Source: Candidatus Kapaibacterium sp.
GTDB lineage: Bacteria; Bacteroidota; Ignavibacteria; Kapaibacteriales; UBA2268
DNA length: 64,000 nucleotides
Reading direction: 5' to 3'
Assembly: GCA_963665665.1 (NCBI GenBank)
Contig: OY762428.1
Location: forward strand, 3,072,001-3,136,000
Under the pieces are notes generated by a model. That model ran no database searches. It was not told where the DNA came from and worked only from the letters and a program-made list of their open reading frames with translations. This document shows positions 13,718 to 61,983 of this stretch, piece by piece (position 1 is the first letter of the stretch; every line of letters begins with the position of its first letter). The translations under genes were made by a program, and so were the position numbers.

Positions 13718-13782
13718 AAGAAATTGGAAACTACTCAGCATAAAGGAAGAATATGTTAGATATGTTTAATAATACCAGAAAA

Positions 13783-13983: not shown

Positions 13984-14373
13984 TTGGAGACAGGAATGAT
14001 AACAGGGATTGGAACAGATATAGTTGATATCAACAGGATTGCGAAACTGATTGATAAATATGACAAGAAAATTCTTGACAGGCTTTTTACTGAAACGGAA
14101 CAGGAATACAGCGAATCATTTAATTACGGTAAGTATCAGCATTATGCAGCTCGCTTTGCTGCTAAAGAATCTTTCAGCAAAGCTATAGGCACGGGAATGA
14201 CCGAGAATTTCAAGTTTCGTGAAATCGGTATTGTCAACGAGGAAAACGGCAGGCCGCGAGTGGTGCTTGATGGTGCACTTAAGGAAAAATACGGCGGGTT
14301 CAGGGTGCATGTATCGCTATCGCATACCGATTCAACTGCTTCAGCGTATATTATTATGGAAAAGGAAGACTGA
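13984..14373 (+). CDS. acpS: Holo-[acyl-carrier-protein] synthase (start probably 13996)
   Basis: GIGTDIV, AARFAAKESFSKAIGTG, VSLSHT. Confidence 0.95.
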   Translation: METGMITGIGTDIVDINRIAKLIDKYDKKILDRLFTETEQEYSESFNYGKYQHYAARFAAKESFSKAIGTGMTENFKFREIGIVNEENGRPRVVLDGALKEKYGGFRVHVSLSHTDSTASAYIIMEKED

Positions 14374-14375
14374 TA

Positions 14376-15503: not shown

Positions 15504-15521
15504 TGATCTTCGATTTCATAA

Positions 15522-15552
15522 TTTATCCGATGGACAGAATCCATCGGATAAA
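15522..15552. repeat. Palindromic element (ATCCGAT-core family), possibly also a terminator
   Basis: TTTATCCGATGGA-CAGAA-TCCATCGGATAAA; relatives at 56996-57026 and 58724-58756. Confidence 0.55.
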
Positions 15553-15630
15553 AAAATGCGATAACAGATGAGTAATCCCAATTCTTTTTTAATAATACTT
15601 TATTTCAGAGCTTCTAATTCCTGAACGAAA

Positions 15631-15985
15631 AATCAAAGCAAGAAAACCACCCCTGTATTCCCCTCCTACTTTAGGAGGGGATAAGAAGTTAAATAACATA
15701 GAATTAACTCCCCCTCCTTCCGAAGGAGGGAGCCGGGGTGATGTAGGAAGTGTCGAAAGCAATGTACAAATGGTTGACGCTATTGCAGCAATGTTTTGCT
15801 TTATTGCTGTCTTGTTTGAAGATAATGACGCCTTGTTCCAAATCAAAGCAATAAAACCACCCCTGTATTCCCCTCCTACTTTAGGAGGGGATAAGAAGTT
15901 AAATAACATAGAATTAACTCCCCCTCCTTTCGAAGGGAGGGAGCCGGGGGGATGTAGGAAGTGTCGAAAGCAATGCACAGATGTT
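15631..15985. repeat. Near-identical ~140-bp direct repeat (copies at 15631 and 15841), each with two CCCC/GGGG REP-like hairpins
   Basis: AATCAAAGCA..AACCACCCCTGTATTCCCCTCCTACTTTAGGAGGGGATAAGAAG...GTGTCGAAAGCAATG present twice, 210 bp apart. Confidence 0.9.
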
Positions 15986-16728
15986 TTATTCAATTGCTGC
16001 CTTGTTCGAAGCTATTGAACCGATGTTCTAAGCCATTGCTGCCTTGGTCTAAGTTATTGCTGCCTTGGTCTAAGTTATTGCACTTATGTTCTAAGCCATT
16101 GTTGCCTTGGTCGAAGTTATTGACCCCTTGGTCGAAGTCATTGATGCCTTGGTCGGAGTCATTGATGCCTTGTTCCAAATCGATGCACCGATGTTCTAAG
16201 TCATTGCTGCCTTGTTTTACTTCAAAGCCCTCTCCTTCGGGGAGGGTTTGGGAGGGGTCGAAGTTATTACACCGATGTTTTATTCAATTGCTGCCTTGTT
16301 CGAAGCTATTGCACCGATGTTTTATTCAATTGCTGTCTTGGTTGGAAGCAAAGTACCAATGTTTGATTCTATTGTTCCCTTGGTCGGAGGCAAAATACCG
16401 AAGGTTTATTCTATTGTTGCCTTGTTAGGAGTTATTGCACCGATGTTCTATTCTATTGCTGCCTTGGTCTAAGTTATTGCTGCCTTGGTCTAAGTTATTG
16501 CACTTATGTTCTAAGCCATTGTTGCCTTGGTCGAAGTTATTTTACCGATTTTCTAAGCCATTGCTGCCTTGTTTTACTTCAAAGCCCTCTCCTTCGGGGA
16601 GGGTTTGGGAGGGGTCGAAGTTATTACACCGATGTTTTATTCAATTGCTGCCTTGTTCGAAGCTATTGCACCGATGTTTTATTCAATTGCTGTCTTGTTT
16701 CGAGGTAATGATTGCTTGTGTAGCGTTG
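15973..16728 (-). repeat. Degenerate 21-bp tandem array (about 32 units plus two 42-bp hairpin inserts)
   Basis: Units such as TTGCTGCCTTGGTCTAAGTTA start at 15994, 16015, 16036 ... 16687 in constant 21-bp phase; minus-strand consensus about AGCAATAACTTAGACCAAGGC. Confidence 0.9.
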
Positions 16729-35895: not shown

Positions 35896-36648
35896 TCAGT
35901 TCAATTCTCTATTTTCACTTTCTGAATTATACTTTACAATCTCAACCCAGTTAATATCCCCATCTTCGGAACAGTATTCGATAGCAAATTCTCTAACAAA
36001 TTTAGTTATCATTTTGGCATAAGATTTTAAAAATTCTTCATTTCTTTCTTTGGCTTTATGTCCCAGGGGATAAATAAGGTTTGTATATAGATTATCATCT
36101 CCCGATATAAAAGCCCAGAAATCCTGTCCGCAGAATTTATAATAGTTATCTTTTTTCAATGGAGTCTTGTCCTTTCCGTAACAACAACCATTTACTGGAA
36201 TAACATTGATAGTTGAATTACTTGTTTTTAAAATTCTGGAAGCAGTATTAAAATCAGAAATCATTTTTTTAATTTGGCTGCTATTTCCCCAATTAGGGCC
36301 TGATTTTATTGAAACTATATATCTGATTGTATCCTTATCAAATTCCAGGTCGATTCCTCTTGCAGATGATTTCCAACCGCCGTAAACTTCGCCGCAAATA
36401 AATATTGCCAGTTCTTCTAACCAGTCTCCGAATAATGTTTCTTCATTTGATGATATGAAAGCATCAGTTATACTACGTATTAATTGTTCAGGGGTTTGTA
36501 AATGTTTAGCCTTAAAAAGATAAGGGTTTTTTCTCTTCAAAACTGTCTTCAATTCTAAACTATTAATCTTTTGAATTCTCTTATCATGAAAAGAAGAAAT
36601 ATTTTGTTCAACGTATTCAACTACTTTTGAAATTTTTATGGGCTTCAT
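35896..36648 (-). CDS. Type II restriction endonuclease (EcoO109I/PmeII-like family)
   Basis: KRKNPYLF, SSNEETLFGDWLEELA, GIDLEF...SIKSGPNWGNSSQ PD-(D/E)xK-like core; overlaps the MTase gene. Confidence 0.75.
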   Translation of the reverse strand: MKPIKISKVVEYVEQNISSFHDKRIQKINSLELKTVLKRKNPYLFKAKHLQTPEQLIRSITDAFISSNEETLFGDWLEELAIFICGEVYGGWKSSARGIDLEFDKDTIRYIVSIKSGPNWGNSSQIKKMISDFNTASRILKTSNSTINVIPVNGCCYGKDKTPLKKDNYYKFCGQDFWAFISGDDNLYTNLIYPLGHKAKERNEEFLKSYAKMITKFVREFAIEYCSEDGDINWVEIVKYNSESENRELN

Positions 36649-37528
36649 AATTAACTCCGGGTTCGAATAGAACTAATTCACGCTTTTCAAATTTATTTTT
36701 CACAATATTATAATAATCCTCAAGAATTTCAATACCTATTGAATTTCTACCCATTCTTTCAGCAACAATGTTGGTTGTTCCGGAACCCATGAAAGGATCC
36801 AAAACAGTATCTCCAGGTAAAGTAAATAATTTAATAAACCATTCCGGCAAAGATTCCGGAAAAGCAGCGCTATGATTTTTATTATTACATTCGGTAGCAA
36901 GATGAAGAACATTTGTGGGGTATGCCATATCTCTGTGCAGCCAATTAGAAATGTTTTTTCCAAAACCACTTCCCACTTTGGATTCGTCTCTGGTTTTATC
37001 CGTATCGCTTAAATTTTTGAGTCTTGTTTTCGCCCAATTGCCAACAGGCACCATAACAGCTTCCTGATACATGTTAAATTTTTTTGATTTATTAAACTGT
37101 AATAGCCTTTCCCATGAATCCCTAAAACGGTTAGGCCATTTTCCCGGATATGAGTTTTTCTTATGCCAGATGAACTCCTCTGTCCATAACCAACCTCTTT
37201 TCCTCATTTCGACTATTAATTCAAGAACATAAGTTGATCTTTCACCGTTCTTTACTTTTTCTTTAATGTTTAATATAAAAGTACCATCCTGTTTTAAAAC
37301 TCTTTTAAATTGATCTGCTTTTCCCATGAACCAGGAAACATATTCTTCTGGTTTAATACCGCCATAAGTATTCTTTCTTTGATCGGCATACGGAGGTGAG
37401 GTAAAAATTAAATCTACACTTTCATCAAGGATTTTATTTAAAATATTCTCGCAATCTCCAAGATATAAGTTAGTTATACTTTTTCCTGTATCAAATGTAT
37501 CAGTCATATAAATATTATCTATTATCAT
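36617..37528 (-). CDS. Beta-class DNA amino-methyltransferase (probably N4-cytosine)
   Basis: Motif IV TSPPY precedes motif I VLDPFMGSGTT; HSAAFP. Confidence 0.9.
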   Translation of the reverse strand: MIIDNIYMTDTFDTGKSITNLYLGDCENILNKILDESVDLIFTSPPYADQRKNTYGGIKPEEYVSWFMGKADQFKRVLKQDGTFILNIKEKVKNGERSTYVLELIVEMRKRGWLWTEEFIWHKKNSYPGKWPNRFRDSWERLLQFNKSKKFNMYQEAVMVPVGNWAKTRLKNLSDTDKTRDESKVGSGFGKNISNWLHRDMAYPTNVLHLATECNNKNHSAAFPESLPEWFIKLFTLPGDTVLDPFMGSGTTNIVAERMGRNSIGIEILEDYYNIVKNKFEKRELVLFEPGVNYEAHKNFKSS

Positions 37529-37980
37529 TTATTCAAAATAAAATATTAAATATATACATATCATTTTCTTAAACAAAATTTTTTTTCTTAGCAAAAAAAT
37601 TCTTAGATTGCACGACTGTAGGTTGACGTTAAAGTATATGCTTTAGAATTTGAGAGTTAGGAAAAAAGATGCGGCAGATATCACGATATGAAAAATACAT
37701 GGCTTCGGTAGAAGAGCACGCAGTATTTCCCAAGTTCAACCTTCCAAAAACCAGGGCAAGCAAAATAGTTCAGTTTAAGCATTACCAAACAGATGCCCCC
37801 ATCTGAATTTTGCCATATGGCCTCTGGTATATACCCGGATTTGGCCGGCAATATTAACATTTCACGCAGCATAATGAGACAATTGATCTTAATAATCCAC
37901 AAGGATTATTAATTATTGGGATAGATAATTGAAAAATATTAAGCATAGCTTATTAATTTATAAACACAGGAGATCTTACA

Positions 37981-38904
37981 ATGACTAAGGATTTTTTGAA
38001 AGTTTCAGACTTCAGCACAGAGGAAATTCTAAAAACCTTTGATATCGCACTTGACATGAAAAATGACCGCATGAAATATTCTGAAGCCCTTAAAGGCCAG
38101 ACTCTTGCGCTCATATTTGAAAAACCTTCACTCCGCACAAGAACTACATTTGACGTTGGTATCCAGCAGCTTGGCGGATATTCCATATATCTTTCTCCCG
38201 CGGAAATCAACCTTGGTAAAAGGGAATCAGTTTATGACGTTGCCAAAAACCTTGAAAGAATGGTACAGGGTATCATGATCCGTACATTTGCTCATTCAGT
38301 TGTTGACGGCTTGTCAGAATATGCAAAAATTCCGATTATTAACGGCCTTACCGATTATACTCACCCATGCCAGGCAATGGCTGATTTCCTTACAATCAAA
38401 GAATATAAAGGCGATTTCAAAGGCCGTAAACTTACTTATGTTGGCGATGGTAACAATGTTGCTCATTCGCTCATGCTTGCAGGCGCCCGCCTTGGTGTTA
38501 GTGTTACAGTTGCTTGCCCCATGGGATACGAACCAAACATGAGAATTTATAACGAAGCTACTGCAATAGGTAAAGAAACCGGCTCTGAAATAGTAGTTAC
38601 AAGCTGTGCCAAAACAGGTGTTAAAGATGCTGATGCTGTTTATACAGACGTTTGGGCATCAATGGGACAGGAAGAAGAAGCTGCTGAACGCAGGAAAATA
38701 TTCCTTCCTTACCAGGTAAACGAAGACCTTATGGCAAATGCAAAATCAGATGCTATCTTTATGCACTGCCTGCCGGCACACCGTGGCGACGAAGTAACTG
38801 ACGGTGTAATTGATGCTGACAATTCTGTTGTATTTCCGGAAGCAGAAAACAGGCTTCACGCACAGAAAGCTATCATGTATCAGCTGATGAAAGATGTTAA
38901 ATAA
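37981..38904 (+). CDS. argF: Ornithine carbamoyltransferase (likely catabolic, ArcB role)
   Basis: FEKPSLRT, HPCQAMAD, ornithine-specific DVWASMG, FMHCLP, EAENRLH. Confidence 0.95.
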   Translation: MTKDFLKVSDFSTEEILKTFDIALDMKNDRMKYSEALKGQTLALIFEKPSLRTRTTFDVGIQQLGGYSIYLSPAEINLGKRESVYDVAKNLERMVQGIMIRTFAHSVVDGLSEYAKIPIINGLTDYTHPCQAMADFLTIKEYKGDFKGRKLTYVGDGNNVAHSLMLAGARLGVSVTVACPMGYEPNMRIYNEATAIGKETGSEIVVTSCAKTGVKDADAVYTDVWASMGQEEEAAERRKIFLPYQVNEDLMANAKSDAIFMHCLPAHRGDEVTDGVIDADNSVVFPEAENRLHAQKAIMYQLMKDVK

Positions 38905-38930
38905 TATTAGCAAAGCATCACGAGGTTAAT

Positions 38931-39872
38931 GTGCAGAAAAAAGCTTTAATAGCAGTTGGCGGGAACTCTCTGATCCGTGCGGGTCAGAGAGGCCGCATAC
39001 CTGAACAGTTCGATAATGCCCTTGCCACGGCACGCAGCATCGTTAAGATGATCGGGCTTGGCTGGGATATGGTAATTACACATGGGAACGGCCCCCAGGC
39101 CGGAGCCGCTCTTCTTCGTTCGGAAAGAGCAGCTTCGGAAGTTTACAGGCATACTCTGGATATGTGTGTAGCTACCACGCAAAGTGAAATAGGATATATA
39201 TTAACCAGGGCAATGGAGCAGGAACTTCGTGCCCAGGGTATTAATAAATCGGTTACAACTATACCCACAATGGTTGAAGTTGATCCCGAAGACGATGCAT
39301 ATAAAAATCCCAGCAAGCCGATTGGCCCTTTTTATTCCGAAGAAGAAGCTGAATCTATGAAAAGGCAGTTCAACTGGGATATTGTTGAAGATGCTTCAAG
39401 AGGTTACAGGCGTGTTGTTGCATCCCCGGAACCCAAAAAAGTAAACGAACTCGGAATCATTCGCAAGATTATTGATCTTGGTATTATAGCCATTGCTCTT
39501 GGCGGCGGCGGAATACCTGTTATCAGGGACGAAAATGCTAATATTACCGGATCTGAAGCCGTTATTGATAAAGACCGCAGTTCAGCTTTGCTTGCTAACG
39601 AATTGGATGTTGATCTGTTTATCATATCGACTGATACCGATCAGGTATATTTGAATTATAAGAAACCTGACGAAAAAGGATTAAGGAACATAAGCGTCGA
39701 TGAGTTGGAAGAATATGCCAAAGCAGGCCATTTTCCTGCCGGATCGATGGGGCCCAAGGTGGAATCCGCCATCAGGTTTGTCAGGAAATCCGGTAAAAAG
39801 GCAATCATAACATCTTATGAGTATCTTGATGCCGCTTTGGAAGGCAAGGCGGGAACGCATATCCTTCCGTAA
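38931..39872 (+). CDS. arcC: Carbamate kinase
   Basis: AVGGNSL, THGNGPQ, PSKPIGPFY, RRVVASP.P, GGGGIPV, EAVIDKD, GSMGPKV. Confidence 0.95.
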   Translation: MQKKALIAVGGNSLIRAGQRGRIPEQFDNALATARSIVKMIGLGWDMVITHGNGPQAGAALLRSERAASEVYRHTLDMCVATTQSEIGYILTRAMEQELRAQGINKSVTTIPTMVEVDPEDDAYKNPSKPIGPFYSEEEAESMKRQFNWDIVEDASRGYRRVVASPEPKKVNELGIIRKIIDLGIIAIALGGGGIPVIRDENANITGSEAVIDKDRSSALLANELDVDLFIISTDTDQVYLNYKKPDEKGLRNISVDELEEYAKAGHFPAGSMGPKVESAIRFVRKSGKKAIITSYEYLDAALEGKAGTHILP

Positions 39873-39989
39873 TTCAAGGATTTCAGGGTGTGGAAAAATT
39901 CATATCCAATAAAATTGGTAATTGATAAAAAGTTGAATAATTTGCTATGATACAGAAAAGCAATTTTCAGATTTATAAAGGGAATTAAT

Positions 39990-40907
39990 ATGAAATTGGA
40001 ACATATTGTCGAATCCCAACAGTTTACGGTTCCGCTTCTTATGGACCTGTTTGAACGTACAAACCAGATGAAAAAGATTGTGGCACGTGGCGGCACAAGA
40101 GACTACGAGAACAAAATACTCGCTACTCTTTTCTATAAGCCTTCCACAAGAACACGTTTTTCTTTTGAATCTGCAATGTACCGTCTTGGAGGAAAAGTCC
40201 TGTCAACTGAACAGGCAAGGGAATTCTCATCTGAAGTAGAGGGAGAGAATCTTGATGATACTATCAGGATAATTTCCAATTATTGTGATACAATTATTCT
40301 CCGCCACCATGAAGAAGGCGGAGCTAAAAGGGCTGCGGCTGTTTCACCTGTTCCAATTGTCAATGCAGGCGATGGTTCGGGCGGGCAACACCCCACACAG
40401 GCATTGCTTGACCTTTATACAATTTATAACGAATGCAAAACTCTCGACGGCCTTTCCATAGCTTTTATCGGTGCTTTGGATCTTGGAAGGACAGTACGTT
40501 CACTGGCCTACTTACTCGGGAAATTTGACAGGATAAAACTTTATTTTGTTGCTCCGGAAGAGCTTCAAATAAATAAAGATATACTTGAATACCTTGACGA
40601 ACGAGGCGTTGCTTATACTCTGGCAAACAGCACAAAAGGAATTCTCGAAAAAGTTGATGTAGTATATCAAACCAGGATTGACAGGGAAAGGCTTAAAGAT
40701 AAAAACATGGACCTGTCTGTTTATAATATTGACAGGGAATCACTGAATATTATGAAGTATGAATCTATCATTCTTCACCCTCTTCCCCGTTCGGTTGAAA
40801 TTGACCCGGGGATCGACCACGATCCGAGGGCGGCATATTTCCGTCAGGCAGAAAATGGTTTGTATGTACGCATGGCCTTACTTACCATGCTTTTTGAAAA
40901 TGAATAA
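39990..40907 (+). CDS. pyrB: Aspartate carbamoyltransferase-like protein (plant-type ATCase fold) with substituted active-site residues
   Basis: STRT, R105, HPTQ, GRTVRSL, HPLPR, YFRQA..G..VRMALL retained; E50K, K84E, D162A, Q231D relative to canonical ATCase. Confidence 0.75.
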   Translation: MKLEHIVESQQFTVPLLMDLFERTNQMKKIVARGGTRDYENKILATLFYKPSTRTRFSFESAMYRLGGKVLSTEQAREFSSEVEGENLDDTIRIISNYCDTIILRHHEEGGAKRAAAVSPVPIVNAGDGSGGQHPTQALLDLYTIYNECKTLDGLSIAFIGALDLGRTVRSLAYLLGKFDRIKLYFVAPEELQINKDILEYLDERGVAYTLANSTKGILEKVDVVYQTRIDRERLKDKNMDLSVYNIDRESLNIMKYESIILHPLPRSVEIDPGIDHDPRAAYFRQAENGLYVRMALLTMLFENE

Positions 40908-40931
40908 TTAATATTGAAATAAAGGAAGATA

Positions 40932-42143
40932 ATGAAAACGCAGGATTTTATTCAGATAGAAAATGATTTTGGCGCTCATAACTACCATCCTCTGGACGTA
41001 GTTGTAAAAGAAGCCAAAGGTGTTTGGGTAACTGATGTAGATGGGAAAAAATACATGGATTGCCTTGCAGCATATTCTGCTGTGAACCAGGGGCATTGCC
41101 ACGAAAAAATTTATGAAGTATTTGTTGAGCAGGCAAAACACGTTACTCTTACAAGCCGTGCTTTCCGCAACGACAGGCTTCCGATGCTTTATAAGAAACT
41201 TAATGAAATGACAGGCTATGGAATGTCATTACCAATGAACTCGGGCGCTGAGGCAGTTGAATCTGCAATTAAAGTTGCACGCCGCTGGGGTTATGACGTA
41301 AAGGGCGTTGAAAAAGATAAAGCAGAGATAGTTGTAGCTTCCGGAAACTTCCATGGCAGAACAACAACTATTGTTGGTTTTTCTGACGATCCTTCTTCTT
41401 ATGCCGGTTTCGGCCCTTATTGCAATGAAGCATTCCCCATGCATGAATATGGTAACCTTGAAGACCTGAAATCAAAAATAAATAAAAATACTGTAGCAGT
41501 AATGGTTGAGCCTATTCAGGGCGAAGGCGGAATCGTTATTCCTCCGGACGGATATCTGAAAGGTATCGCAGAAATTTGTAAAGAAAACAATATTCTTTTC
41601 ATTTGCGATGAAATCCAGGCAGGCCTTGGCCGCAGCGGTAAACTTTTTGCCCACTATTACGAAGATGTCAGGCCGGACATCGTCATTATCGGTAAAGCTC
41701 TTGCAGGTGGTTTTTATCCCGTTTCGGCAATTCTTGCAAGCAAAGATGTTATGCTGGTGGTAAAACCCGGCGAGCATGGCTCCACATTTGGCGGTAATCC
41801 TCTTGGTGCTGCTGTAGCTATTAAAGCACTGGAAGTAATTGAAGACGAAAAACTCGTTGAAAGGTCTTATGAAATGGGCGAGTATTTCATGGGCAAACTT
41901 CGTGCAATTGACAGCCCGCATATTTCACTTGTTCGCGGACGCGGCCTCTGGATTGGTTTCGTTCTCGACCGCAAAGCCCGTCCTTACTGCGAAAAACTTA
42001 TGGATGAGGGTATCCTTTGTAAAGAAACGCATGAAAATATTATTCGTTTTGCTCCTCCTCTCGTTATTAGCAAGGAAGATATTGACTGGGCATGTGAGAA
42101 AATCGAAAAAGTTGTTAAAGAACTCGATAGCGTAGAGTTTTAA
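40932..42143 (+). CDS. rocD: Ornithine--oxo-acid aminotransferase
   Basis: GAHNYHPL, YSAVNQGHCH, LTSRAF, MNSGAEAVE, FHGRT, EPIQGEGG, DEIQ, GKAL (PLP lysine), HGSTFGGNPL. Confidence 0.95.
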   Translation: MKTQDFIQIENDFGAHNYHPLDVVVKEAKGVWVTDVDGKKYMDCLAAYSAVNQGHCHEKIYEVFVEQAKHVTLTSRAFRNDRLPMLYKKLNEMTGYGMSLPMNSGAEAVESAIKVARRWGYDVKGVEKDKAEIVVASGNFHGRTTTIVGFSDDPSSYAGFGPYCNEAFPMHEYGNLEDLKSKINKNTVAVMVEPIQGEGGIVIPPDGYLKGIAEICKENNILFICDEIQAGLGRSGKLFAHYYEDVRPDIVIIGKALAGGFYPVSAILASKDVMLVVKPGEHGSTFGGNPLGAAVAIKALEVIEDEKLVERSYEMGEYFMGKLRAIDSPHISLVRGRGLWIGFVLDRKARPYCEKLMDEGILCKETHENIIRFAPPLVISKEDIDWACEKIEKVVKELDSVEF

Positions 42144-42194
42144 TTAAATAAAGATATATAATTTTTCTAATTAATTTTTTGTTTAAGGAGTTTA

Positions 42195-43520
42195 ATGATG
42201 GAAAAGAAAAGAGTTATCATCATCGGCGCAGCCGGACGTGATTTCCACAATTTCAACACAGTTTACAGGAATGATGAAACAACAGAAGTAGTAGCTTTCA
42301 CAGCTGCTCAGATTCCGGATATCGACGGACGTATGTACCCACCGGCACTTGCAGGCGAACTTTATCCCGCAGGTATTCCGATCAAAGCCGAAGAAGAACT
42401 TGAAGCTCTTATCGAAGAATATAAAGTAGACGAATGCGTTCTTTCATATAGCGATCTTCCTTACGAAACAGTAATGCACATTGGATCTCGCGTTATGACA
42501 ACAGGCGCAAAATTTTCGATGCTCGGCTCATACCCGACTATGATCAAATCAACAAAACCTGTTGTATCTGTTACAGCTATCCGTACAGGTTGTGGCAAAA
42601 GCCAGACAACACGTGCGGTTGTTCGCGCACTTCTGGATCAGGGCAAAAAAGTTGCTTCTATCCGTCACCCTATGCCTTACGGCGATCTTGAAAAACAGAA
42701 AGTTCAGCGCTTTGCAGAACTCGAAGACCTCAAGAAACACGATTGCACAATCGAAGAAATGGAAGAGTACGAACCACATATCGCTATGGGCAGTATCATT
42801 TATGCCGGCGTAGATTATGAAGCAATCGTTCGCGAAGCAGAAAAAGAAGCTGACGTAATCGTTTGGGACGGTGGAAACAATGATATGCCTTTCTACAAAC
42901 CAGACCTTTCAATCGTTGTTGTTGATCCGCTTCGTCCGGGCCACGAAATTACTTATTATCCCGGTGAAGTTAACCTTCGCATGGCTGATGTTGTTGTTGT
43001 TAACAAAGTTGACTCTGCATATCCTGAAGATATGGAAGAAGTTCTCGACAATGTTCGCGAATACAACCCGACAGCAAAGATCATCCTTGCTGCTTCTTCA
43101 ATTATGGTTGACGACCTTGACGCTATCCGCGACAAAGAAGTTCTCGTTGTAGAAGACGGCCCGACCCTTACACACGGCGAAATGGATCTTGGCGCAGGTA
43201 CAGTAGCAGCACGCCGCTTTGGTGCAGCAGCTCTTGTTGATCCTCGTCCTTACACAGTAGGCAAACTTACCGAAACATTCGAGAAATATCCTGAAATCGG
43301 TATCCTTCTTCCTGCTATGGGTTATGGCGAACAGCAGATGAAAGACCTTGAAACAACTATCAACAATACAGAATGTGAAGCTGTTGTTATCGGAACTCCG
43401 ATCAACCTTGGCCGCTTCATCAAAATTGACAAACCGAATACTCGCGTTTATTATGAACTGAGCGAAATCGGTTTCCCGACAATCAAATCAGAAATTAAAG
43501 ACTTTGTTGAAAAACACTAA
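42195..43520 (+). CDS. arcE: Arginine synthetase ArcE-like P-loop protein (usually annotated GTPase / cyclic 2,3-diphosphoglycerate synthetase-like)
   Basis: GAAGRDFHNFN, RTGCGKS P-loop, IRHPMPYG, WDGGNND, VEDGPTLTHG, LPAMGY; co-located with OTC and carbamate kinase. Confidence 0.75.
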   Translation: MMEKKRVIIIGAAGRDFHNFNTVYRNDETTEVVAFTAAQIPDIDGRMYPPALAGELYPAGIPIKAEEELEALIEEYKVDECVLSYSDLPYETVMHIGSRVMTTGAKFSMLGSYPTMIKSTKPVVSVTAIRTGCGKSQTTRAVVRALLDQGKKVASIRHPMPYGDLEKQKVQRFAELEDLKKHDCTIEEMEEYEPHIAMGSIIYAGVDYEAIVREAEKEADVIVWDGGNNDMPFYKPDLSIVVVDPLRPGHEITYYPGEVNLRMADVVVVNKVDSAYPEDMEEVLDNVREYNPTAKIILAASSIMVDDLDAIRDKEVLVVEDGPTLTHGEMDLGAGTVAARRFGAAALVDPRPYTVGKLTETFEKYPEIGILLPAMGYGEQQMKDLETTINNTECEAVVIGTPINLGRFIKIDKPNTRVYYELSEIGFPTIKSEIKDFVEKH

Positions 43521-43541
43521 TTTGATTTGATTGAAAAAATT

Positions 43542-43573
43542 GCCCTGCTTCATCCCGAGGCAGGGCTTTTTTT
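43542..43573 (+). terminator. Terminator ending the arginine operon
   Basis: GCCCTGCTTC-loop-GAGGCAGGGC-TTTTTTT. Confidence 0.8.
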
Positions 43574-43639
43574 ATTTTAAATATTTGCGGGGATTGATTA
43601 TTTTGCCTTAATTCATTTTTACGAATTTTCGCCTTTAAA

Positions 43640-45205
43640 TTGATGAATACTACACCTAAAACCTCAATCTTAATTTTTTCGGTATCCGCCCTGTTATATT
43701 TGCTTGTCGGCATTAATTATGGTGTAAATATATATGCCGAAGGCCTGGCCCTTTTCGGAGCGGATATGGTATCAAAAGGATATATTCCATACCTGGATTT
43801 CTGGACAATTTATACGCCGGGACAGTTTTACCTTCTGGCAGGTTTTATGAATATATTTGGATGGGACATTCTTGCCGGAAGATTGCTAACAGTATTATTA
43901 ATAATTTCTTCCGGAGTTATTCTTACTCTGCTCGGAAAAAAGTTATCATACCAACGAATGTATTATTTACCATTTATTTTAACGGTTATCTGGTTTGGGC
44001 TTGTTCCGTCGTGGTCCAGGTCTGTACCATCTGCATTATTCCTCTCACTGCTTTCAATTTTTACTTACCTGAAGTTCAATGATAAAAATGCGGGCTTGAT
44101 CCTGCCGGGTGCTTTGGCCGCGATGACAGGATTTTTCAGGCATGACTTCGGGCTTTATGTGCTTATTGCAATAATTGCAGGAAATTTTGTATTTAATAAC
44201 CAATGGAAAACAATTATTAAAAAATCTTTTTGGGTAGTTATTGGTTTTATGATAGTATTGATACCTATTGCTGCCTATTTTCTGTCGAATGTACCATTCG
44301 ATATCCTGAAGGATCAATTAGTAGATACACCCCGTGAAGTCTTTGCTGATTACAGATCGCTTCCATTTCCTGTATTCGAAATATTTTCCAATCCCCCGGA
44401 TAGTTTAAGAGAATTAATCATAAAATGCTGGCAGGCTGTTGTTTTTTTAATCCCAATAATTTTTATTATTTATGGATTCATATACTATTTTAAAAACAGG
44501 AATTCCGAAAAAGGAGCTGGCATATTTATATTTGCTCTGCTTTCCCTGCTTATGTACAGCCAGTGTATTATCCGCTCAGATACCGAACACCTTACCCCGT
44601 CAATTGTAATAGCTTTTCCGCTTATAGTATTTGCCCTGATAAGGGAAGGAATAAAAAAATCAAGAAAAATTTTGATTTTTATTTCAATCGCCTTCATTGT
44701 ATCATTTCCTTTAATGAAAAAAACCATACTTGTCCAAAAGATCATAAGGGGAAATTCTGTAGAAATTGTTACTGACAGGTCAAATTATATTAAAGCAGAA
44801 CCTGTCTTTGCAAATGATTATAACGATATAATTGACTATATCCGGAAGCACAGTTCAGAAAATGATATAATATTTTCCGGATGTATAAGACATGACAAAC
44901 TTCTTATTAACGATGTGATGATATATTTTCTAACAGCAAAGAACAGCGCTTCATTCTATCATGAGCTCCATCCGGGAGTAACAACAACTCTTGAAGTGCA
45001 GGATAGAATTATTGATGAGATCAGCAAAAATAATCCGGCACTTATCATATTAAGTCGTCAGGATGCTGTTCAGGAACCCAATAAGTCCTCTGAAAGCAGC
45101 GGAGTAACATTACTTGATGAATACATTTCAGACAGATACCGTCATGTTTTTGAGAAAGGCGCGTACAGTATTCTTGAAAAAAGAACTAGTTTAAACGAGG
45201 ATTGA
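43640..45205 (+). CDS. Multi-pass membrane protein, GT-C (ArnT/PMT-like) glycosyltransferase candidate
   Basis: More than 10 TM segments; EG...G..PY.DFW..Y.PG motif typical of GT-C-like proteins. Confidence 0.6.
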   Translation: MMNTTPKTSILIFSVSALLYLLVGINYGVNIYAEGLALFGADMVSKGYIPYLDFWTIYTPGQFYLLAGFMNIFGWDILAGRLLTVLLIISSGVILTLLGKKLSYQRMYYLPFILTVIWFGLVPSWSRSVPSALFLSLLSIFTYLKFNDKNAGLILPGALAAMTGFFRHDFGLYVLIAIIAGNFVFNNQWKTIIKKSFWVVIGFMIVLIPIAAYFLSNVPFDILKDQLVDTPREVFADYRSLPFPVFEIFSNPPDSLRELIIKCWQAVVFLIPIIFIIYGFIYYFKNRNSEKGAGIFIFALLSLLMYSQCIIRSDTEHLTPSIVIAFPLIVFALIREGIKKSRKILIFISIAFIVSFPLMKKTILVQKIIRGNSVEIVTDRSNYIKAEPVFANDYNDIIDYIRKHSSENDIIFSGCIRHDKLLINDVMIYFLTAKNSASFYHELHPGVTTTLEVQDRIIDEISKNNPALIILSRQDAVQEPNKSSESSGVTLLDEYISDRYRHVFEKGAYSILEKRTSLNED

Positions 45206-45327
45206 CGATTATGATTACAGCAATTCTAATTGTTCTTTATAACCGGAATTGAGCATGTAACTATGAAAACTTTCAAAGAATTAACTTAATATCGGGTATA
45301 ATGTTAATATTATTTTAAACCTGATTT

Positions 45328-48300
45328 TTAATGAGCCATTTTATCGAAGCCGTTTCGTGCTCTTTTTACAAGTAGATGAACTCTGTTATCTGTATTTGCT
45401 TCGCTCATACCGGAATCAATATCAAGGAAGAGTATACTAAGTTCAGGGTCAATATCTTTCAGTGGTTTTTCCATGCCTCTTGCTATCACGTGGTTGGCAA
45501 TGCAGCCGAAAGGCTGAAGGCAAAGTACATTTTTAATATTATCTTCTGCAAATGCCAGTATATCGCCTGCAATCATCCACCCTTCTCCAAAATAGAGGTT
45601 CACCAGGTTCATTACTTTCGAGGCATTATCAGCTATGTGCTCAATATCATGCCATGGTTCATAATAATTGAATTTCTTCAGAACAGTATCAAATTTATTA
45701 AAGCTGTGCATATAATATTTTTTAATGATACCGGAAAGCATCGCGGATATGGGCTTACTGTCCGTAAGGGCTTTGTTTTTAACTTTCACGTTTACAAACC
45801 ACTGAATGAAAAGGTTTATCAGCGGGGGAGTAACAACTTCTATTCTTTCTTCAACCAGGCGGTCTACTATTTTAAAATTCCCGGCCGGATTATATTTAAC
45901 AAAAATTTCCCCTACCAATCCTATCTTTGGCACATTTTCGAATTCAAGTTCCACGGAGTTGAACTCATCAACTGCATGGCTCAGAAGATTCAAAAGGCCC
46001 TTCAGATCGCTGTCTTTGATATAATCAGCTGCCATATCAGAATATTTATCGGATATTTTTCTGGCAGAGCCCCTTTGTTTTTCACGCGGGGCTATTGAAT
46101 GATACATCCTGGAGAGTGAATCCCCGAAAAGAACTCCGATGGCCCCTTTGGATATAAGTTTTAAGGCGCTGGATTTGAATCCCGGCTGCTCATTCAATCC
46201 AAGGTCAATAACAGAAGCAGCAATAACCGGAATATTCTCATACCCGGCACTTACCAGGGATTTTTTCAACAAAGGTAAATAGCTCGATGCCCGGCACTGG
46301 CCACCGGTTTGTGATATGCCAACAGCAAGGTTGTTCAGATCGTATTTACCGGATTTTATTGCTTTCAGGATGTCTCCGATAACGAGAGTTGCAGGATAGC
46401 ATATTTCATTGTTCACATATTTCAATCCAAGCTCAACAGACGTGTCATCAGATTCAGGCAAAACTTCAACATCATAACCCATCGCGCTGAATGTTGCTGT
46501 TATATATGCAGAATGAAAAGGGGAAAAGAATGGAACAATTATCTTTTTCTTCCTGTCTTCTTCCTGGAAAAGTTTGGTGGTTTTTCTGGTATAACCCTTC
46601 AGGGAATTATCGTTCAAATCTTTTAACCGGATTGATTCTGCAAGAGAGCGTATTCGCAAGCGTAAGGATCCCGAGCCGGTATGCTCGTCAATCCTGATAA
46701 CTGTATGATTTTTTCCCCGGGATTCAAGTATTTCCCTCGTTTCGTCTATTACTATTGTATCCGGCCCGCAACCAAATGAATTAAGCTGAATATATTCAGC
46801 GCCGGGCAGTTTGCTAATATGTTTGGCCGAACGGTATATTCTGTTAGGATAAGCCCATTGGGTTAGTACCTGGATGTCTTTCACGTCGTCGCCGGACAGG
46901 TCAAGGGCATCTTCGGTAACTACATCAAGCCCGAAATCAACGATCATCTCGGGTATATTGTGATTAACAAGGGTATCTATATGATAAGGCCGGCCTGATA
47001 GAACAATGAATCGTTTGTTTCGGCTGATATTATTTACAATTATTTCATTTCCTTTTTCAAGGAGTTTATCCCTGTATTCCTGCTTTGCCTGTAAGGCTTT
47101 GTTAAAAGCTTTGTTAATTACTCGCGGAGTAATACCAAGGGATGATAAATATTTTTTGCAGGAGCGCTTCAATAATTTCAAGTCTTTGAAACTTACTGTT
47201 GGAGTGTCAAAATGGATATTGTGTTTTTCCGGGTTAACGGCTTTTCTTATTAAGTCAGGGTAGCCTGAAACTACAGGGCAGTTATACGCATTGATTGCTG
47301 TTTCTTCTTCTTTTGTTTCGTATATCACCATTGGATAGAAAATACGGTCGACTTTCTTTTCAATCAGCCTTATTATGTGCCCGTGTGCCAGTTTTGCCGG
47401 GTAGCATATATTATCGGACATAACGGTTCCGGCACCGAGATCGCTGATCTCGTTATTAGATTTTCCGGAAAGAACAACTTCGAATCCGCACTCTCTGAGC
47501 AGTGTAGCCCAGAATGGAAAATTTTCGAACATATTCAAAGCTTCAGGCAGGCCAATCCTTGCAATAGCAGGCTGTTCAGGTTTCATCGGCCTTGCGAAAA
47601 GAAGTTTATATTTATATTCTGTCAGGTTGAAACCTCTTTCTGTTCGCCGGCCTTTCGAGGAAAACAATTTCTCGCATCTGTTGCCGGTATAGAACACGTT
47701 ACCGTTGGCAAATTTCAATCTTGTAATGCCGCACTGGTTTTCACATCCGGAGCAGGTGATTTTCCGGGTAGTGAATTCTGGTACCTGCTTAAGGTCGGAA
47801 ATTTTATTTATTGATTTGGCTTTACAAATTTCCGCCTGCCCCGCGGCATAAAGTGCTGCCCCGTAAGCTCCCATTAATTCCGAAATATCCGGGCAGGTAA
47901 CCTGCCTGCCAATTTTATTTTCAAATGCTTTGTGTACTGCCGGGTTTTTGAACGTTCCGCCCTGAACAATTATATTCTTACCAAGAACATCCGGGTTGTG
48001 AATTCTTAATACCTTGTGCAGGCAATTATCGATAACAGAATAAGCAAGCCCTGCTGATATATCTTCGATTCCGGCGCCCTCGCGGAAGCTTTGCTTAACT
48101 TTTGAATTCATAAATACCGTGCAGCGTGTTCCCAGGTTGCAGGGGTCGGTGGAATTACAGGCAAGGGCGGCAAATTCATGGACGGGATGCCCGAGCGAAT
48201 CAGCAAAAGTTTCTATAAAAGATCCGCATCCTGAAGAACAGGCTTCGTTGATCTCAATATTTTTAATAATACCATTTTCCACATATATTGCTTTCATATC

Positions 48301-49614
48301 CTGTCCGCCGATATCCAGAATAAAAGATACCTTTTCGGAAAATTGCTTTGCAGCAGTGAAATGGGCTATTGTTTCAACAACCCCGTAATCCAGGTTGAAA
48401 GCAGAGCGGATAAGCTCCTCGCCATAACCTGTTACAGCCGAGGAGTAAAGCTCAATATCAGCTACAGACGGATACTCTGTAATTAATTTTCTGATACCAT
48501 TTTCCACAGCGGCAACCGGGTCGCCGTCATTGTTGGCATAATATTTAAAAGCGATATTTCCTTTTCGGTCAGTCAATACAATTTTTGTTGTGGTAGAACC
48601 TGAATCAATACCAAGAATACAGTTGCCGCTTTTTAGTTTGGAAATATCCATTGTAGGAGCTTTTACGGAATTTCTATTTTTCAGCCATTCCTTCTTTTCC
48701 TCATTGCTTTTAAAAAGCGGTGTCGCCCTTTTTTTGACTGCCCCGGGCCTTACAGAGCAACGGTTCATTCGTTTGCAGATATCATCTATTGCTATCCTGA
48801 AACTATCATTTCCGGATGCAATTGCAGCACCGTAAGCAGGAACTAATTGCGGCGATTCAATATTAATTATATTTTCTTCATTCAGCCGGAAAACATTCAG
48901 CATTGATTTACGGAGATTTGAAATAAATGACAAGGGGCCGCCGGAAAATATCACTCCCGGCCTGACATCATTTCCTTTCATTAAAGTATTCTTGATCTGG
49001 AGCGCTATTGCGTTAAATACTGATGCAGCAATATCAGGCAGTGAAATCTTTTGGCTTAGCAGGTTCTGAACATCTGTTTTTGCAAACACTCCGCATCTTG
49101 ATGCAATCGGATATACTTTTTCGGATTTATCCGCAAGGCTGTTCAGCTTAGAGACGGGCATTTTCAGCAATGTTGCAATCTGGTCGATGAAAGCACCTGT
49201 TCCGCCGGCACATGAACCATTCATTCGCAGATCATGGCTGCCGTTGGAATTAAGAAAAATAATTTTTGAATCTTCTCCGCCAATATCTATCAGTGTTCTT
49301 GCCTCGGGATGCCTCGTTGTTACAAATTCTGCCGAAGCTATCAGCTCCTGAACAAAGGGTATTCCGCTTTTCTCTGACAGGCCCATACCTGCACTGCCAG
49401 TAATTGCAAGCGACATTTCCTGCCCGGAGAATTTCTGCAATGCTTTATTTATTATAGTATTAACCGTGGACTTAATCCTGCCGTTATGCCTGTTATATTC
49501 CGAAAACAATACTCTGTCCCGGCTGTCAGTAATAACAGCTTTTGCCGTGGTCGACCCAATATCAAGTCCAAGTTTAAGTCCGGTTAACATTCCCTGCTCA
49601 ATTAAAGCTAACAA
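45328..49614 (-). CDS. Acyl-CoA dehydratase activase-related protein (two BadF/BcrAD ATPase domains plus DUF2229-like region); start likely 49590
   Basis: GLDIGSTT, DIGGED, CAGGTG, CGVF; second GIDSGSTT, DIGGQD, CSSGCG, CTVF; NICYPAKL, SFGCGPD, GQCRAS, QPFGC. Confidence 0.9.
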   Translation of the reverse strand: MLALIEQGMLTGLKLGLDIGSTTAKAVITDSRDRVLFSEYNRHNGRIKSTVNTIINKALQKFSGQEMSLAITGSAGMGLSEKSGIPFVQELIASAEFVTTRHPEARTLIDIGGEDSKIIFLNSNGSHDLRMNGSCAGGTGAFIDQIATLLKMPVSKLNSLADKSEKVYPIASRCGVFAKTDVQNLLSQKISLPDIAASVFNAIALQIKNTLMKGNDVRPGVIFSGGPLSFISNLRKSMLNVFRLNEENIINIESPQLVPAYGAAIASGNDSFRIAIDDICKRMNRCSVRPGAVKKRATPLFKSNEEKKEWLKNRNSVKAPTMDISKLKSGNCILGIDSGSTTTKIVLTDRKGNIAFKYYANNDGDPVAAVENGIRKLITEYPSVADIELYSSAVTGYGEELIRSAFNLDYGVVETIAHFTAAKQFSEKVSFILDIGGQDMKAIYVENGIIKNIEINEACSSGCGSFIETFADSLGHPVHEFAALACNSTDPCNLGTRCTVFMNSKVKQSFREGAGIEDISAGLAYSVIDNCLHKVLRIHNPDVLGKNIIVQGGTFKNPAVHKAFENKIGRQVTCPDISELMGAYGAALYAAGQAEICKAKSINKISDLKQVPEFTTRKITCSGCENQCGITRLKFANGNVFYTGNRCEKLFSSKGRRTERGFNLTEYKYKLLFARPMKPEQPAIARIGLPEALNMFENFPFWATLLRECGFEVVLSGKSNNEISDLGAGTVMSDNICYPAKLAHGHIIRLIEKKVDRIFYPMVIYETKEEETAINAYNCPVVSGYPDLIRKAVNPEKHNIHFDTPTVSFKDLKLLKRSCKKYLSSLGITPRVINKAFNKALQAKQEYRDKLLEKGNEIIVNNISRNKRFIVLSGRPYHIDTLVNHNIPEMIVDFGLDVVTEDALDLSGDDVKDIQVLTQWAYPNRIYRSAKHISKLPGAEYIQLNSFGCGPDTIVIDETREILESRGKNHTVIRIDEHTGSGSLRLRIRSLAESIRLKDLNDNSLKGYTRKTTKLFQEEDRKKKIIVPFFSPFHSAYITATFSAMGYDVEVLPESDDTSVELGLKYVNNEICYPATLVIGDILKAIKSGKYDLNNLAVGISQTGGQCRASSYLPLLKKSLVSAGYENIPVIAASVIDLGLNEQPGFKSSALKLISKGAIGVLFGDSLSRMYHSIAPREKQRGSARKISDKYSDMAADYIKDSDLKGLLNLLSHAVDEFNSVELEFENVPKIGLVGEIFVKYNPAGNFKIVDRLVEERIEVVTPPLINLFIQWFVNVKVKNKALTDSKPISAMLSGIIKKYYMHSFNKFDTVLKKFNYYEPWHDIEHIADNASKVMNLVNLYFGEGWMIAGDILAFAEDNIKNVLCLQPFGCIANHVIARGMEKPLKDIDPELSILFLDIDSGMSEANTDNRVHLLVKRARNGFDKMAH

Positions 49615-59953: not shown

Positions 59954-60901
59954 ATGTCAACAGCAAGAATAGACGAACTGAGAATGATCGATCCCGTGCT
60001 GTCAACGGTAGCACAGGGATATACAAACGCCGCCATGGTATCAACGAAACTCTTCCCGATAGTGGAAGTAAGCAAACTGAAGGGCAAGGTTCCCGAATTC
60101 GGCAGGGAATCCTTCCTGATACGTGATACTGTAAGGGCAATCCGCGCGGCATCAAACAGGATAGCCCCTGCCGATGTGAACATGATAGAATTTCAGACGC
60201 AGGAAAGAGATATTGAAACAGCGATCGATTACCTTGAGGAAGAGGAAAGCCCGGACTTCCTGCGATACGAGCAGCGCCTGACCCGTGACCTTATGGACAT
60301 ACTCCTGCTGGAAAGAGAAAAACTGGCCGCTGACCTGGCGCAGGATACAGGTAACTACGGCAGCGGGTTAACGAAGACTCTGGACGATAGCAACTGTTTC
60401 GATGATTACAGCCTGGCTATTGATCCCGTGGCGATAATAAAACAGGGGATGATAGCTGTTCGTGAGAAAATTGCAAAGTACCCGAACACAATGGTAATGG
60501 GAGATTCAGTTTACAACGCGCTTACCTCTCATCCGAAAATAATCGAACGGGTAAAATACGCAGGTATCAGCAAAGTTGATGTCGGCGTGTTCAGGGAATT
60601 GTTCGGTATAAAGGATATTCATATCGGCAGGGCTGTGCAAACCGAAGACGGCGCGACATTCAGCGATATATGGCAGGATAATATCATTATGGCTTATACT
60701 GATAAAAATGAAAGGGGCAAACGCAGCGAGTTCAATCCGAGTTTCGGCTATACCTTCAGACGTAAGGATATGCCAGAGGTGGACAGCTACTTCGAGAACG
60801 GCGGCAAGCTGAAAGTTGTCCGCGCCACGGAAAATTATACTATAAAGATCACTGCTCAGGACGCGGCATATCTTATAACCGGTGCTGTGCTGTACGGGTA
60901 G
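59954..60901 (+). CDS. Phage major capsid protein
   Basis: LRMIDPVLSTVAQGYTN...LFPIV, PNTMVMG, HPKI, PSFGYTF, AYLI motifs of HK97-fold capsids; directly after the protease; strong SD. Confidence 0.8.
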   Translation: MSTARIDELRMIDPVLSTVAQGYTNAAMVSTKLFPIVEVSKLKGKVPEFGRESFLIRDTVRAIRAASNRIAPADVNMIEFQTQERDIETAIDYLEEEESPDFLRYEQRLTRDLMDILLLEREKLAADLAQDTGNYGSGLTKTLDDSNCFDDYSLAIDPVAIIKQGMIAVREKIAKYPNTMVMGDSVYNALTSHPKIIERVKYAGISKVDVGVFRELFGIKDIHIGRAVQTEDGATFSDIWQDNIIMAYTDKNERGKRSEFNPSFGYTFRRKDMPEVDSYFENGGKLKVVRATENYTIKITAQDAAYLITGAVLYG

Positions 60902-61189
60902 GGATTGGTCTAAAGGAGACGGTTCTATCCAATTTGTCATTTTGAGCGATAGCGAAGAATCCATTCTTCAACATTTCTCATCAGGAGAAGAACCTCCCCT
61001 ATAATCCCCTCCTCCGCGAAGAGGGGATAAGAAATAAATATGTAAAAATTCCCCTCTCGAGGGGTGGCAGCGAAGCTGACGGGGTGGTTCTTTATACGAG
61101 AAGAAGAACCACCCCTTTGATCCCCTACAATGGAGGGGAATGAAAAACAGAATGAATAAATCAAATAACTACAATCAAAGGAGAAAATT

Positions 61190-61534
61190 ATGTCGGCAAA
61201 TACAAAAACATATCAGCCGGTACAGGCTGTAAGCGTAAAGGCAGCGGAAGACCTTCCGGGGTTTCGTTTCGTATCACATCTCGGATCGGTATGCGCCGCA
61301 GGGGCGAAATCACTTGGCGTACCCGAGGTATCCTGGAAAGAAGACGAACAGGCGGCGGTGATAACTCTTGGCACTATTGCCGTTGAAACATCGGAAAGTA
61401 TCAGTGCCGGTGCGAATGTTACATCCGATTCCGAAGGAATGGGCGTTGTTGCTACTGAAGGAGATGCTGTTAACGGCAGGGCGCTGGATTCATGCTCCGA
61501 ACCCGGTTTTGTAAAAATATTACTTGTGCCATAG
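61190..61534 (+). CDS. Capsid cement/decoration protein (DUF2190-like)
   Basis: 114-aa Gly/Ala/Val-rich; G..V.SD..G..V....G...GRAL pattern; follows the capsid gene. Confidence 0.7.
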   Translation: MSANTKTYQPVQAVSVKAAEDLPGFRFVSHLGSVCAAGAKSLGVPEVSWKEDEQAAVITLGTIAVETSESISAGANVTSDSEGMGVVATEGDAVNGRALDSCSEPGFVKILLVP

Positions 61535-61542
61535 GTGACGGC

Positions 61543-61983
61543 ATGGCATATATCAGCGAATCAGATTTTTTAAAAGAATTGTCTTCGGAGGAGCTTGCCC
61601 GGCTTACGGGCGACCCCTCCGGGGCAACGATTGACCACGAGCGCACGGGAATTGCGATAACACGTTCCTGCGCGGTGATTGATACCATGCTGCACGGCAA
61701 ATACGGCGTACCCTTTGCAAGCCCGCCGGAGATAATAATAAAGATTGCGGCTGACCTTGCGGTGGCGCATTTGCTTGAGTTTTATTACAAGTCATCGAGT
61801 TTGCCTCCTACAATTGCCTGGCGCAAGGTGAATGCCATGAACCTGCTGAAGAAAATTGCCGCAGGGGAAATTATCCTGACGGGATATACCGCTACCTCAG
61901 ACGCTCCCCCGGCAATAGTCTGCAGAACCAGGCAGCAGCGGCTGTTTTCGGATGAAGTACTGAACAATTACGGAGATGATTAA
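61543..61983 (+). CDS. Mu gp36-like head-tail connector (DUF1320)
   Basis: MAY...D......EL..LT.D, IDTML..KY.VP, AADLA..HL, A..LL..IA.G.I.L. Confidence 0.8.
   Translation: MAYISESDFLKELSSEELARLTGDPSGATIDHERTGIAITRSCAVIDTMLHGKYGVPFASPPEIIIKIAADLAVAHLLEFYYKSSSLPPTIAWRKVNAMNLLKKIAAGEIILTGYTATSDAPPAIVCRTRQQRLFSDEVLNNYGDD

Follow-up and report, generated by a model that had tools for sequence, protein, structure and literature searches.

What does a protein resembling aspartate carbamoyltransferase (ATCase) do in an arginine-catabolic operon, when residues that ATCases use to hold aspartate have been replaced? This question is raised by a gene at positions 39990..40907 (+ strand) of the window, i.e., the whole stretch of 64,000 nucleotides of Candidatus Kapaibacterium DNA that was analysed. 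The initial annotation, made from the sequence alone, described an ATCase paralog with a rewired active site. It proposed that the encoded protein either carbamoylates an acceptor other than aspartate, possibly an amine-bearing one, or has a non-catalytic role.

The ATCase look-alike and its operon

The open reading frame starts with ATG and encodes 305 amino acids, with the Pfam domains OTCace_N (3.7e-40) and OTCace (2.5e-27). The protein scores 297.6 bits with the NCBIfam ATCase model TIGR00670 (asp_carb_tr), whose cut-off is 236.95, and 142.5 bits with the ornithine carbamoyltransferase (OTC) model TIGR00658, whose cut-off is 280.85; since it also has HPLP and not HCLP, we do not classify it as an OTC. 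We take its residue numbers to coincide with those of the Escherichia coli enzyme through residue 234. The ranges of HMMER alignments agree with this numbering (residues 39-302 of the query against 39-304 of the E. coli chains), and because the paralog runs two residues behind E. coli after position 234, its HPLPR motif is found at 263-267.

The translation bears out the substitutions and the retained carbamoyl phosphate (CP) residues that were originally listed. Residues 50-56 are K50, P51, S52, T53, R54, T55 and R56, and the 80s loop reads F79-S80-S81-E82-V83-E84-G85-E86 (FSSEVEGE). Further along are R105-H106, H134, Q137, G161-A162-L163-D164 and R167, and residues 229-234 are R229-I230-D231-R232-E233-R234. 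The CP-site motifs STRTR, R105, HPTQ and HPLP are all present. At the RxQxER motif, which comprises R229 and Q231 in ATCases, the paralog has RIDRER, and the K84 that the 80s loop of the neighbouring chain contributes in ATCases is E84. According to the parts of the literature that we draw on, RxQxER occurs in all known ATCases, and R229, Q231, R167 and K84 hold aspartate (PMC4581275); in the plant enzyme, the contacts to PALA are the same as those that hold aspartate (Bellin et al., PMC7878868).

The best solved relative of the paralog is Arabidopsis PYRB (6ypo; phmmer E 1.5e-94). An AlphaFold model, a step that the initial annotation had recommended, has a pLDDT of 88 and a flexible CP-loop at residues 75-84, and Foldseek aligns it to Arabidopsis ATC with a TM-score of 0.92 at 50% identity, so the ATCase fold is predicted to be kept. 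The paralog thus resembles this ATCase of the plant/archaeal HPLPR type in fold, length, CP site, R167, R229 and HPLPR, and its CP-loop is plant-like up to F79-S80-S81. However, it lacks K84 and Q231, its subgroup additionally has K50 and A162 instead of E50 and D162, and the gene lies behind a kinase gene in an arginine-catabolic operon. The CP-loop of the UMP-inhibited plant enzyme (F161, S162, S163, A164, A165 and K166 in Arabidopsis numbering) is reported to be invariant in plants in the relevant part of PMC7878868, but the paralog continues with E-V-E after F79-S80-S81 and does not match this loop.

The first gene of the operon encodes an OTC of the arcB/argF type (37981..38904, +; 424.8 bits with NF001986 and 401.6 bits with TIGR00658). 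It is followed by an arcC-type carbamate kinase (38931..39872, +; TIGR00746, 373.7 bits, cut-off 358.25), the paralog, an ornithine--oxo-acid aminotransferase (40932..42143, +; TIGR01885, 545.1 bits, cut-off 378.4) and a P-loop protein of 441 amino acids (42195..43520, +). The profiles agree with the flanking carbamate kinase and ornithine aminotransferase named in the initial annotation and, as it also stated, no pyr gene is located near the paralog in the window. A strong terminator-like hairpin of 10 pairs (7 of them G-C) with a T run (43542..43576, +) closes the five-gene operon.

The 441-amino-acid protein is a distant relative of cyclic 2,3-diphosphoglycerate (cDPG) synthetase. Its only PDB match is a distant one to such an enzyme (9sxb, E 5e-6), and the atlas clusters around it are named cDPG synthetase or GTPase; a literature search on COG2403 found no paper. 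The first description of the arginine synthetase pathway dates from 2024 (Michimori et al.). In the parts of that paper used here, the enzyme ArcE (TK2200) had been annotated as a putative GTPase, shows weak similarity to cDPG synthase and is frequently encoded near arcB and arcC; from arginine, ADP and phosphate, it produces citrulline, ammonia and ATP (PMC11032458). Proteins of the 441-amino-acid type are always clustered with OTC and carbamate kinase. From this gene context and the likeness to the published description, we infer that the protein is an ArcE-like arginine synthetase, and we refer to such genes as ArcE in that sense.

The OTC gene is preceded by a leader of 450 bp, which contains an upstream open reading frame of 45 codons (37669..37806, +). 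We compared this reading frame between the window and 14 loci of tier 1. Its C-terminal part, consisting of the last ~19 residues (ending in ...QFKHYxTDAPI), is conserved ahead of the OTC gene in 11 of these 15 operons, and the reading frame may encode a leader or arrest peptide of the operon. Rfam has no match in positions 37000-46000 of the window. Directly upstream of the operon, on the opposite strand, is a type II restriction-modification pair (35896-37528, -), made up of an endonuclease of the EcoO109I family (297 bits) and an N6/N4 DNA methylase.

Distribution, origin and variation of the look-alikes

Loss of the changed residues is unusual, as was originally suggested. Among the 150 best representatives of clusters at 50% identity, counted without filtering, E50 is kept in 128, K84 in 140, D162 in 143 and Q231 in 136, and K84 and Q231 occur jointly in 134. 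The 120 close homologs that were listed, which are 75-100% identical to the paralog and carry the names Ignavibacteria, Kapabacteria or Bacteroidota, all keep the CP residues, R167, R229 and HPLPR, and none of these 120 has E50 or Q231. Of the 151 class genomes sampled, 41 encode a paralog-type protein (55-100% identical). We also scanned contigs from one genome per species and obtained 80 loci, 18 canonical and 62 non-canonical, where the source names of the latter include Acidobacteriota/Terriglobia, Vicinamibacterales, Gemmatimonadota, Verrucomicrobiia and Chlorobiota. In these 62 loci from other assemblies, S52, R54, T55, R105, H134, Q137, R167 and R229 are each present without exception and T53 is present in 61; K84 is left in 2 and Q231 in 5.

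We inferred a tree of 255 sequences with FastTree, leaving out representatives outside the range of 285-370 amino acids. In this tree, 109 sequences that do not have K84 and Q231 in combination, including the window's paralog, constitute one clade (support 0.953), and the sister group is a set of 16 canonical ATCases (support 0.97). Five other sequences lacking K84/Q231 are placed elsewhere. The tree shows a single origin of the look-alike clade, which spans several phyla, and this settles the concern that the substitutions might be unique to one sequence or reflect drift. Relatives were also sought for the basal sequence P0135; none was close (best 52%), but the search brought up the Acidobacteriota-type subgroup described below. 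We considered whether a loop with the pattern R33-G-G-T-x-D-Y could be a new site specific to the clade, but the nearest canonical ATCases bear similar loops.

The gene neighbourhood is strongly conserved and nearly always consists of an operon with OTC, carbamate kinase and ArcE. In the window and in all 32 class loci examined, the paralog is immediately preceded by a carbamate kinase gene of like orientation; this gene adjoins the paralog in all 41 paralog-bearing class genomes, and lies upstream of the look-alike in 59 of the 62 loci from other assemblies, with one of the three exceptions at a contig edge. Such neighbours were seen in none of the loci of the 18 canonical relatives. Of the 14 loci from the window's subgroup, 13 have the gene order OTC, kinase, paralog, aminotransferase and ArcE (the exception, L034, has no ArcE within the stretch fetched), and 16 of 18 loci of a second subgroup have the order ArcE, OTC, kinase and paralog. 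Between the stop codon of the kinase and the start of the paralog there are at most 20 bp in 18 of 33 operons, including overlaps of 4 bp, 21-60 bp in 10 and longer gaps in 5; the gap in the window is 117 bp. ArcE, OTC and kinase are still combined in 8 of the 9 operons fetched from class genomes without the paralog, and we therefore regard the paralog as accessory. Moreover, it is absent from 44 of the 85 class genomes that have carbamate kinase, and thus is no general kinase subunit.

In five loci of family f12 (L057, positions 7423-7812, and L053, L054, L058 and L059), an open reading frame of 129-134 amino acids directly follows the look-alike. The copy in L057 is an aspartate 1-decarboxylase (panD) according to Pfam, and the other four were matched to it by size and position. 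We did not take this as a link between panD and the look-alike, since the arrangement is probably a lineage-specific gene order in f12.

To compare residues among subgroups, we dropped from the canonical column of the alignment 10 representatives that had earlier been marked as deviant or as fragments. In the window's subgroup (94 non-redundant sequences), position 50 is K in 69, R in 10 and N in 6, among others, position 162 is A in 93, and position 231 is D in 79 and E in 5. Position 84 in these 94 sequences is E (36), K (19), Q (13), A (7), P (5) or another residue, with an entropy of 2.66 bits. The Kryptonia/Ignavibacteriales type (58 sequences) has E at position 50 in 49, anything at 84 (3.22 bits), N (33) or D (22) at 162, and E (51) or D (5) at 231. 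The Acidobacteriota type, the sister subgroup to that of the window, comes from Acidobacteriota, Gemmatimonadota and other sources and has Q, E or A at 50, E or D at 84, E at 162, and at 231 usually R, Q or H and otherwise K or L. An acidic residue at 231 is thus found in 84 of 94 and 56 of 58 sequences of the first two subgroups. The residues flanking position 84 (F79, S80, S81, G85 and E86) are invariant or nearly so; among the paralog's close relatives, position 84 itself looks unconstrained.

The initial annotation had asked whether K50/E84/A162/D231 mark a conserved clade linked to arcE/arcC. A conserved clade linked to the kinase and arcE does exist, but this quartet is only one sub-signature within it. 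Positions 50, 84, 162, 231, 233 and 234 all vary between subgroups, and the operon context is the same. Given that the subgroups share one context, it is hard to argue that a single new acceptor is read by positions 50, 84, 162 and 231. In particular, the idea that two acidic positions imply an amine-bearing acceptor lacks a conserved basis and gains little from these data, as position 84 looks unconstrained and position 231 differs by subgroup. A different explanation for the charged residues is that pairs such as K50/D231 or E84/R231 could form internal salt bridges. In the window's subgroup, 71 of 94 sequences combine K or R at 50 with D or E at 231. Such a pairing would fit a salt bridge, although common descent confounds it.

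One lineage, family f24 (L060 and L072), has a broken CP site: its look-alikes have the substitutions S52G, R54L and R229G/S. Here, the pair of kinase and paralog lies within a ygeW-type purine-catabolic cluster (L060 positions 3512-16511, from genome G128, and L072). These clusters also contain two xanthine-dehydrogenase-like Mo enzymes, a YgeW-like carbamoyltransferase, a PLP enzyme, an M20 peptidase and MobA beside the carbamate kinase. The two f24 copies are 78% identical, with dN of 0.156 and saturated dS, which indicates that the look-alike is under purifying selection beside the kinase despite the loss of its CP site. This conservation suggests that, at least in this lineage, the protein has a selected function that needs neither CP chemistry nor arginine genes and that travels with the kinase. 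To this extent, the non-catalytic alternative raised in the initial annotation gains support. However, the change in f24 may be secondary and uninformative about the window's protein.

The f24 copies also demonstrate that a profile score is no proof of function, since they still score 276-295 bits with TIGR00670, above its cut-off. Because the curated ATCase model passes the look-alikes, even those with a broken CP site, metabolic reconstructions would count them as pyrB. The look-alike is therefore an annotation trap for pyrB calls.

Barba et al. (2013) described three groups of pseudo-ATCases, one of which is an allantoate-phosphorolysing enzyme encoded beside carbamate kinase (PMC4016543, in part). 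These groups have HPLA, H[ST]LP or HSLP, and have AIA/AIS/SIA, GX[SC] or VXP in place of RxQ (Table 1 of that paper). Like our clade, they are ATCase paralogs that are annotated as ATCase, keep STRT and HPTQ and have a changed RxQ. Unlike them, our clade retains HPLP and R229, changes only position 231 (and 84), and is associated with arginine instead of purine catabolism; it fits none of the three motif groups as tabulated there. Searches of the literature on pseudo-ATCases, on arginine synthetase together with ATCase, and on ATCase paralogs in connection with carbamate kinase and Ignavibacteria did not find the look-alikes described. Based on the comparisons above, we have high confidence that they are a distinct family derived from ATCase, in which CP binding has been kept and aspartate specificity lost, and which is tied to carbamate kinase. 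This family is widespread and, judging by these literature searches, undescribed.

Canonical ATCases and the supply of carbamoyl phosphate

The genome containing the window is a single contig that is 99.5% complete. As proposed initially, it was checked for a canonical pyrB, and there is a second ATCase-family gene (G000:C1:268702-269580, 298 bits) with canonical motifs, namely E50, K84, RLQRER and the HPGP type. The description of our gene as a paralog is therefore appropriate, and it is very unlikely that the window's paralog is the housekeeping ATCase. A further ATCase-family match is present in all 41 paralog-bearing genomes of the class, and in at least 24 of them it lies at another site (confirmed for G022 and G148).

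In the whole genome of the window's organism, there is neither carB, which encodes CP synthase (CPS; best match 58 bits, cut-off 1027), nor argG, so its CP probably comes from arginine. A gene similar to that for arginine deiminase (ADI; C1:794569-795798) scores below the cut-off. The situation resembles that of Thermococcus kodakarensis, which likewise has no carB and no argG (PMC11032458, PMC13260591, both in part), and whose CP was shown genetically to come from arginine (PMC13260591). By this analogy, the window's organism is probably an arginine auxotroph that draws its CP from arginine. With respect to the ArcE-ArcB-ArcC pathway of T. kodakarensis, the window's operon likewise contains OTC and carbamate kinase, both of which pass their profile cut-offs, together with a putative ArcE-like P-loop protein (likened by description), but adds the ATCase-derived gene and the ornithine aminotransferase. 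The main-text parts of PMC11032458 and PMC13260591 that were searched make no mention of an ATCase-like component; within the main text of PMC11032458, pyrB does not occur and 'aspartate' appears in other contexts only. We considered whether the paralog could be tied to the loss of CPS. However, carB is present in 37 of the 41 paralog-bearing genomes, and this rules out such a link.

A different type of ATCase in arc-type clusters is found in 15 genomes of the class (families f8 and f19). This protein is 40-45% identical to the paralog and has K84, D162 and Q231; it is 355-360 amino acids long (L061-L068), has Q50 and the motif RIQDEY, and its gene neighbours those for kinase, OTC or an ArcE-like protein. 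Those 15 genomes, 5 of which (all f19) have no CPS, contain no other ATCase-type match, and the protein may be a true ATCase that is fed by arginine-derived CP. The tree rules out these arc-linked ATCases as ancestors of the look-alike clade.

Possible roles of the look-alike

CP is at a fork between energy yield, through carbamate kinase, and the biosynthesis of pyrimidines and arginine. Our leading explanation, to which we assign a probability of roughly 40%, is that the paralog is no longer an aspartate carbamoyltransferase, but would bind CP and assist the OTC/kinase step as an accessory partner. In the proposed scheme, the ArcE-like enzyme would convert arginine to citrulline with a gain of ATP, OTC would convert citrulline to ornithine and CP, carbamate kinase would use CP to make ATP, and the aminotransferase would remove ornithine. 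The paralog would capture or sense the CP released by the catabolic OTC, with its pocket closing in the absence of aspartate, and would either hand the CP to carbamate kinase or gate this kinase. The varying charged residues at positions 50, 84, 162/164 and 231 would then be internal salt bridges and not a site for a defined new acceptor.

Support for an accessory partner is offered by the canonical pyrB elsewhere, the single origin of the clade, the retained CP site, acceptor-side residues that vary by subgroup, the adjacency to the kinase, the f24 lineage and the ArcE operons that lack the paralog. A possible precedent for a CP-handling partner comes from Pyrococcus. There, CP is channelled from carbamate kinase to both OTCase and ATCase, and the kinase and OTCase associate in a physical complex (review PMC6022934, in part). 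A further parallel is the class A ATCase dodecamer, which contains an 'active or inactive dihydroorotase' in the words of the portion of PMC4581275 that we use. The inactive dihydroorotase (PyrC') is, like the f24 copies, a paralog kept after catalysis was lost, in its case for assembly, but it differs from the look-alike in fold and in partner.

It is important to consider the evidence against an accessory partner. The invariant residues H134, Q137, R105, T55, R167 and R229 fit an active enzyme, and might exceed what mere binding needs. Residue 231 is not random within subgroups, and roughly half of the kinase-bearing class genomes do without the paralog, as noted above. A transcarbamylase paralog without catalytic activity is not known from the literature. 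Proteins once regarded as 'pseudo-ATCases' or as unusual OTCases have proved to be enzymes, e.g., ureidoglycine carbamoyltransferase (UGTCase) Rxyl_2847, which adjoins the kinase Rxyl_2848 and works phosphorolytically (PMC4016543, in part).

A close rival reading, which we consider only slightly less probable, is that the look-alike could be an active transcarbamylase that uses an acceptor other than aspartate, or that works in reverse by phosphorolysis of another ureido compound, and so takes CP from, or supplies it to, the pool from which the kinase makes ATP. The invariance of its CP-binding and catalytic residues, R167, R229 and HPLP would be explained, as would the conservation of residue 231 inside each subgroup, and the predicted retention of the ATCase fold is consistent with it. 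Moreover, the characterised transcarbamylases known to be encoded beside carbamate kinase are all enzymes of this sort (OTC, PTCase and, from PMC4016543, UGTCase), and the residue corresponding to K84 is not a lysine in other transcarbamylase families (PMC4581275, Table 1, in part). However, the positions that would read the acceptor (50, 84, 162, 231, 233 and 234) vary across subgroups that share the operon. The genes around the look-alike belong to the arginine pathway alone, and none of them encodes a transporter or a pathway step for a second ureido compound. In addition, the f24 protein has been kept after the loss of R54 and R229, and there is no match to the published motif groups of pseudo-ATCases. 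A residual ATCase, perhaps a weak one, that routes arginine-derived CP into pyrimidine synthesis is improbable in our estimation. The score above the TIGR00670 cut-off, the lack of carB and argG in the window's genome with CP coming from arginine as in T. kodakarensis, and the precedent of the true-looking f8/f19 ATCases in arc clusters are compatible with this role. Against this, the paralog has lost both the RxQxER motif reported for all known ATCases and K84, which with Q231 holds the carboxylates of aspartate (PMC4581275, PMC7878868, in part), and an acid at 231 should repel the beta-carboxylate; canonical pyrB coexists in paralog-bearing genomes, most of which have CPS, and the f8/f19 proteins are not relatives of the clade in the tree. 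We favor an accessory CP partner over both a transcarbamylase with an unknown acceptor and a residual ATCase.

The loss of ATCase-essential residues might also be expected in a decaying gene copy without function. We find this extremely unlikely given the intact reading frame, the close homologs at 75-86% identity, the CP-site residues that are invariant across several phyla, and the dN and dS values obtained even in f24, the most degenerate lineage.

A more specific proposal is that the look-alike is a ligand-sensing pseudo-ATCase that gates carbamate kinase, which we regard as unlikely, if somewhat less so than a residual ATCase. It is suggested by the observation that the kept residues are those that hold UMP in plant ATCase, while the lost K84 and Q231 are reported to contact only the aspartate part of PALA. 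According to the relevant part of PMC7878868, the residues that bind UMP correspond to R54, T55, R105, H134, R167, R229, the PLP loop, S80 and F79, and the equivalents of K84 and Q231 make no contact with it. If such a sensor exists, bound CP or a pyrimidine nucleotide would decide whether CP is converted to ATP or spared for pyrimidine synthesis, a choice that would matter most in genomes without CPS, such as that of the window. More generally, the family points either to an unrecognised transcarbamylase reaction or to a CP-binding protein that would be the first member of this enzyme family without catalytic activity.

Two further regions of the window, downstream of the operon, have distinctive genes. 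Positions 45328-49614 (-) encode a fusion protein of 1428 amino acids with two BcrAD/BadFG ATPase domains and DUF2229 (CoA-enzyme activase type). At 59954-61983 (+), phage-like genes, with a weak match to major capsid protein E and a match to Mu Gp36, suggest a prophage remnant.
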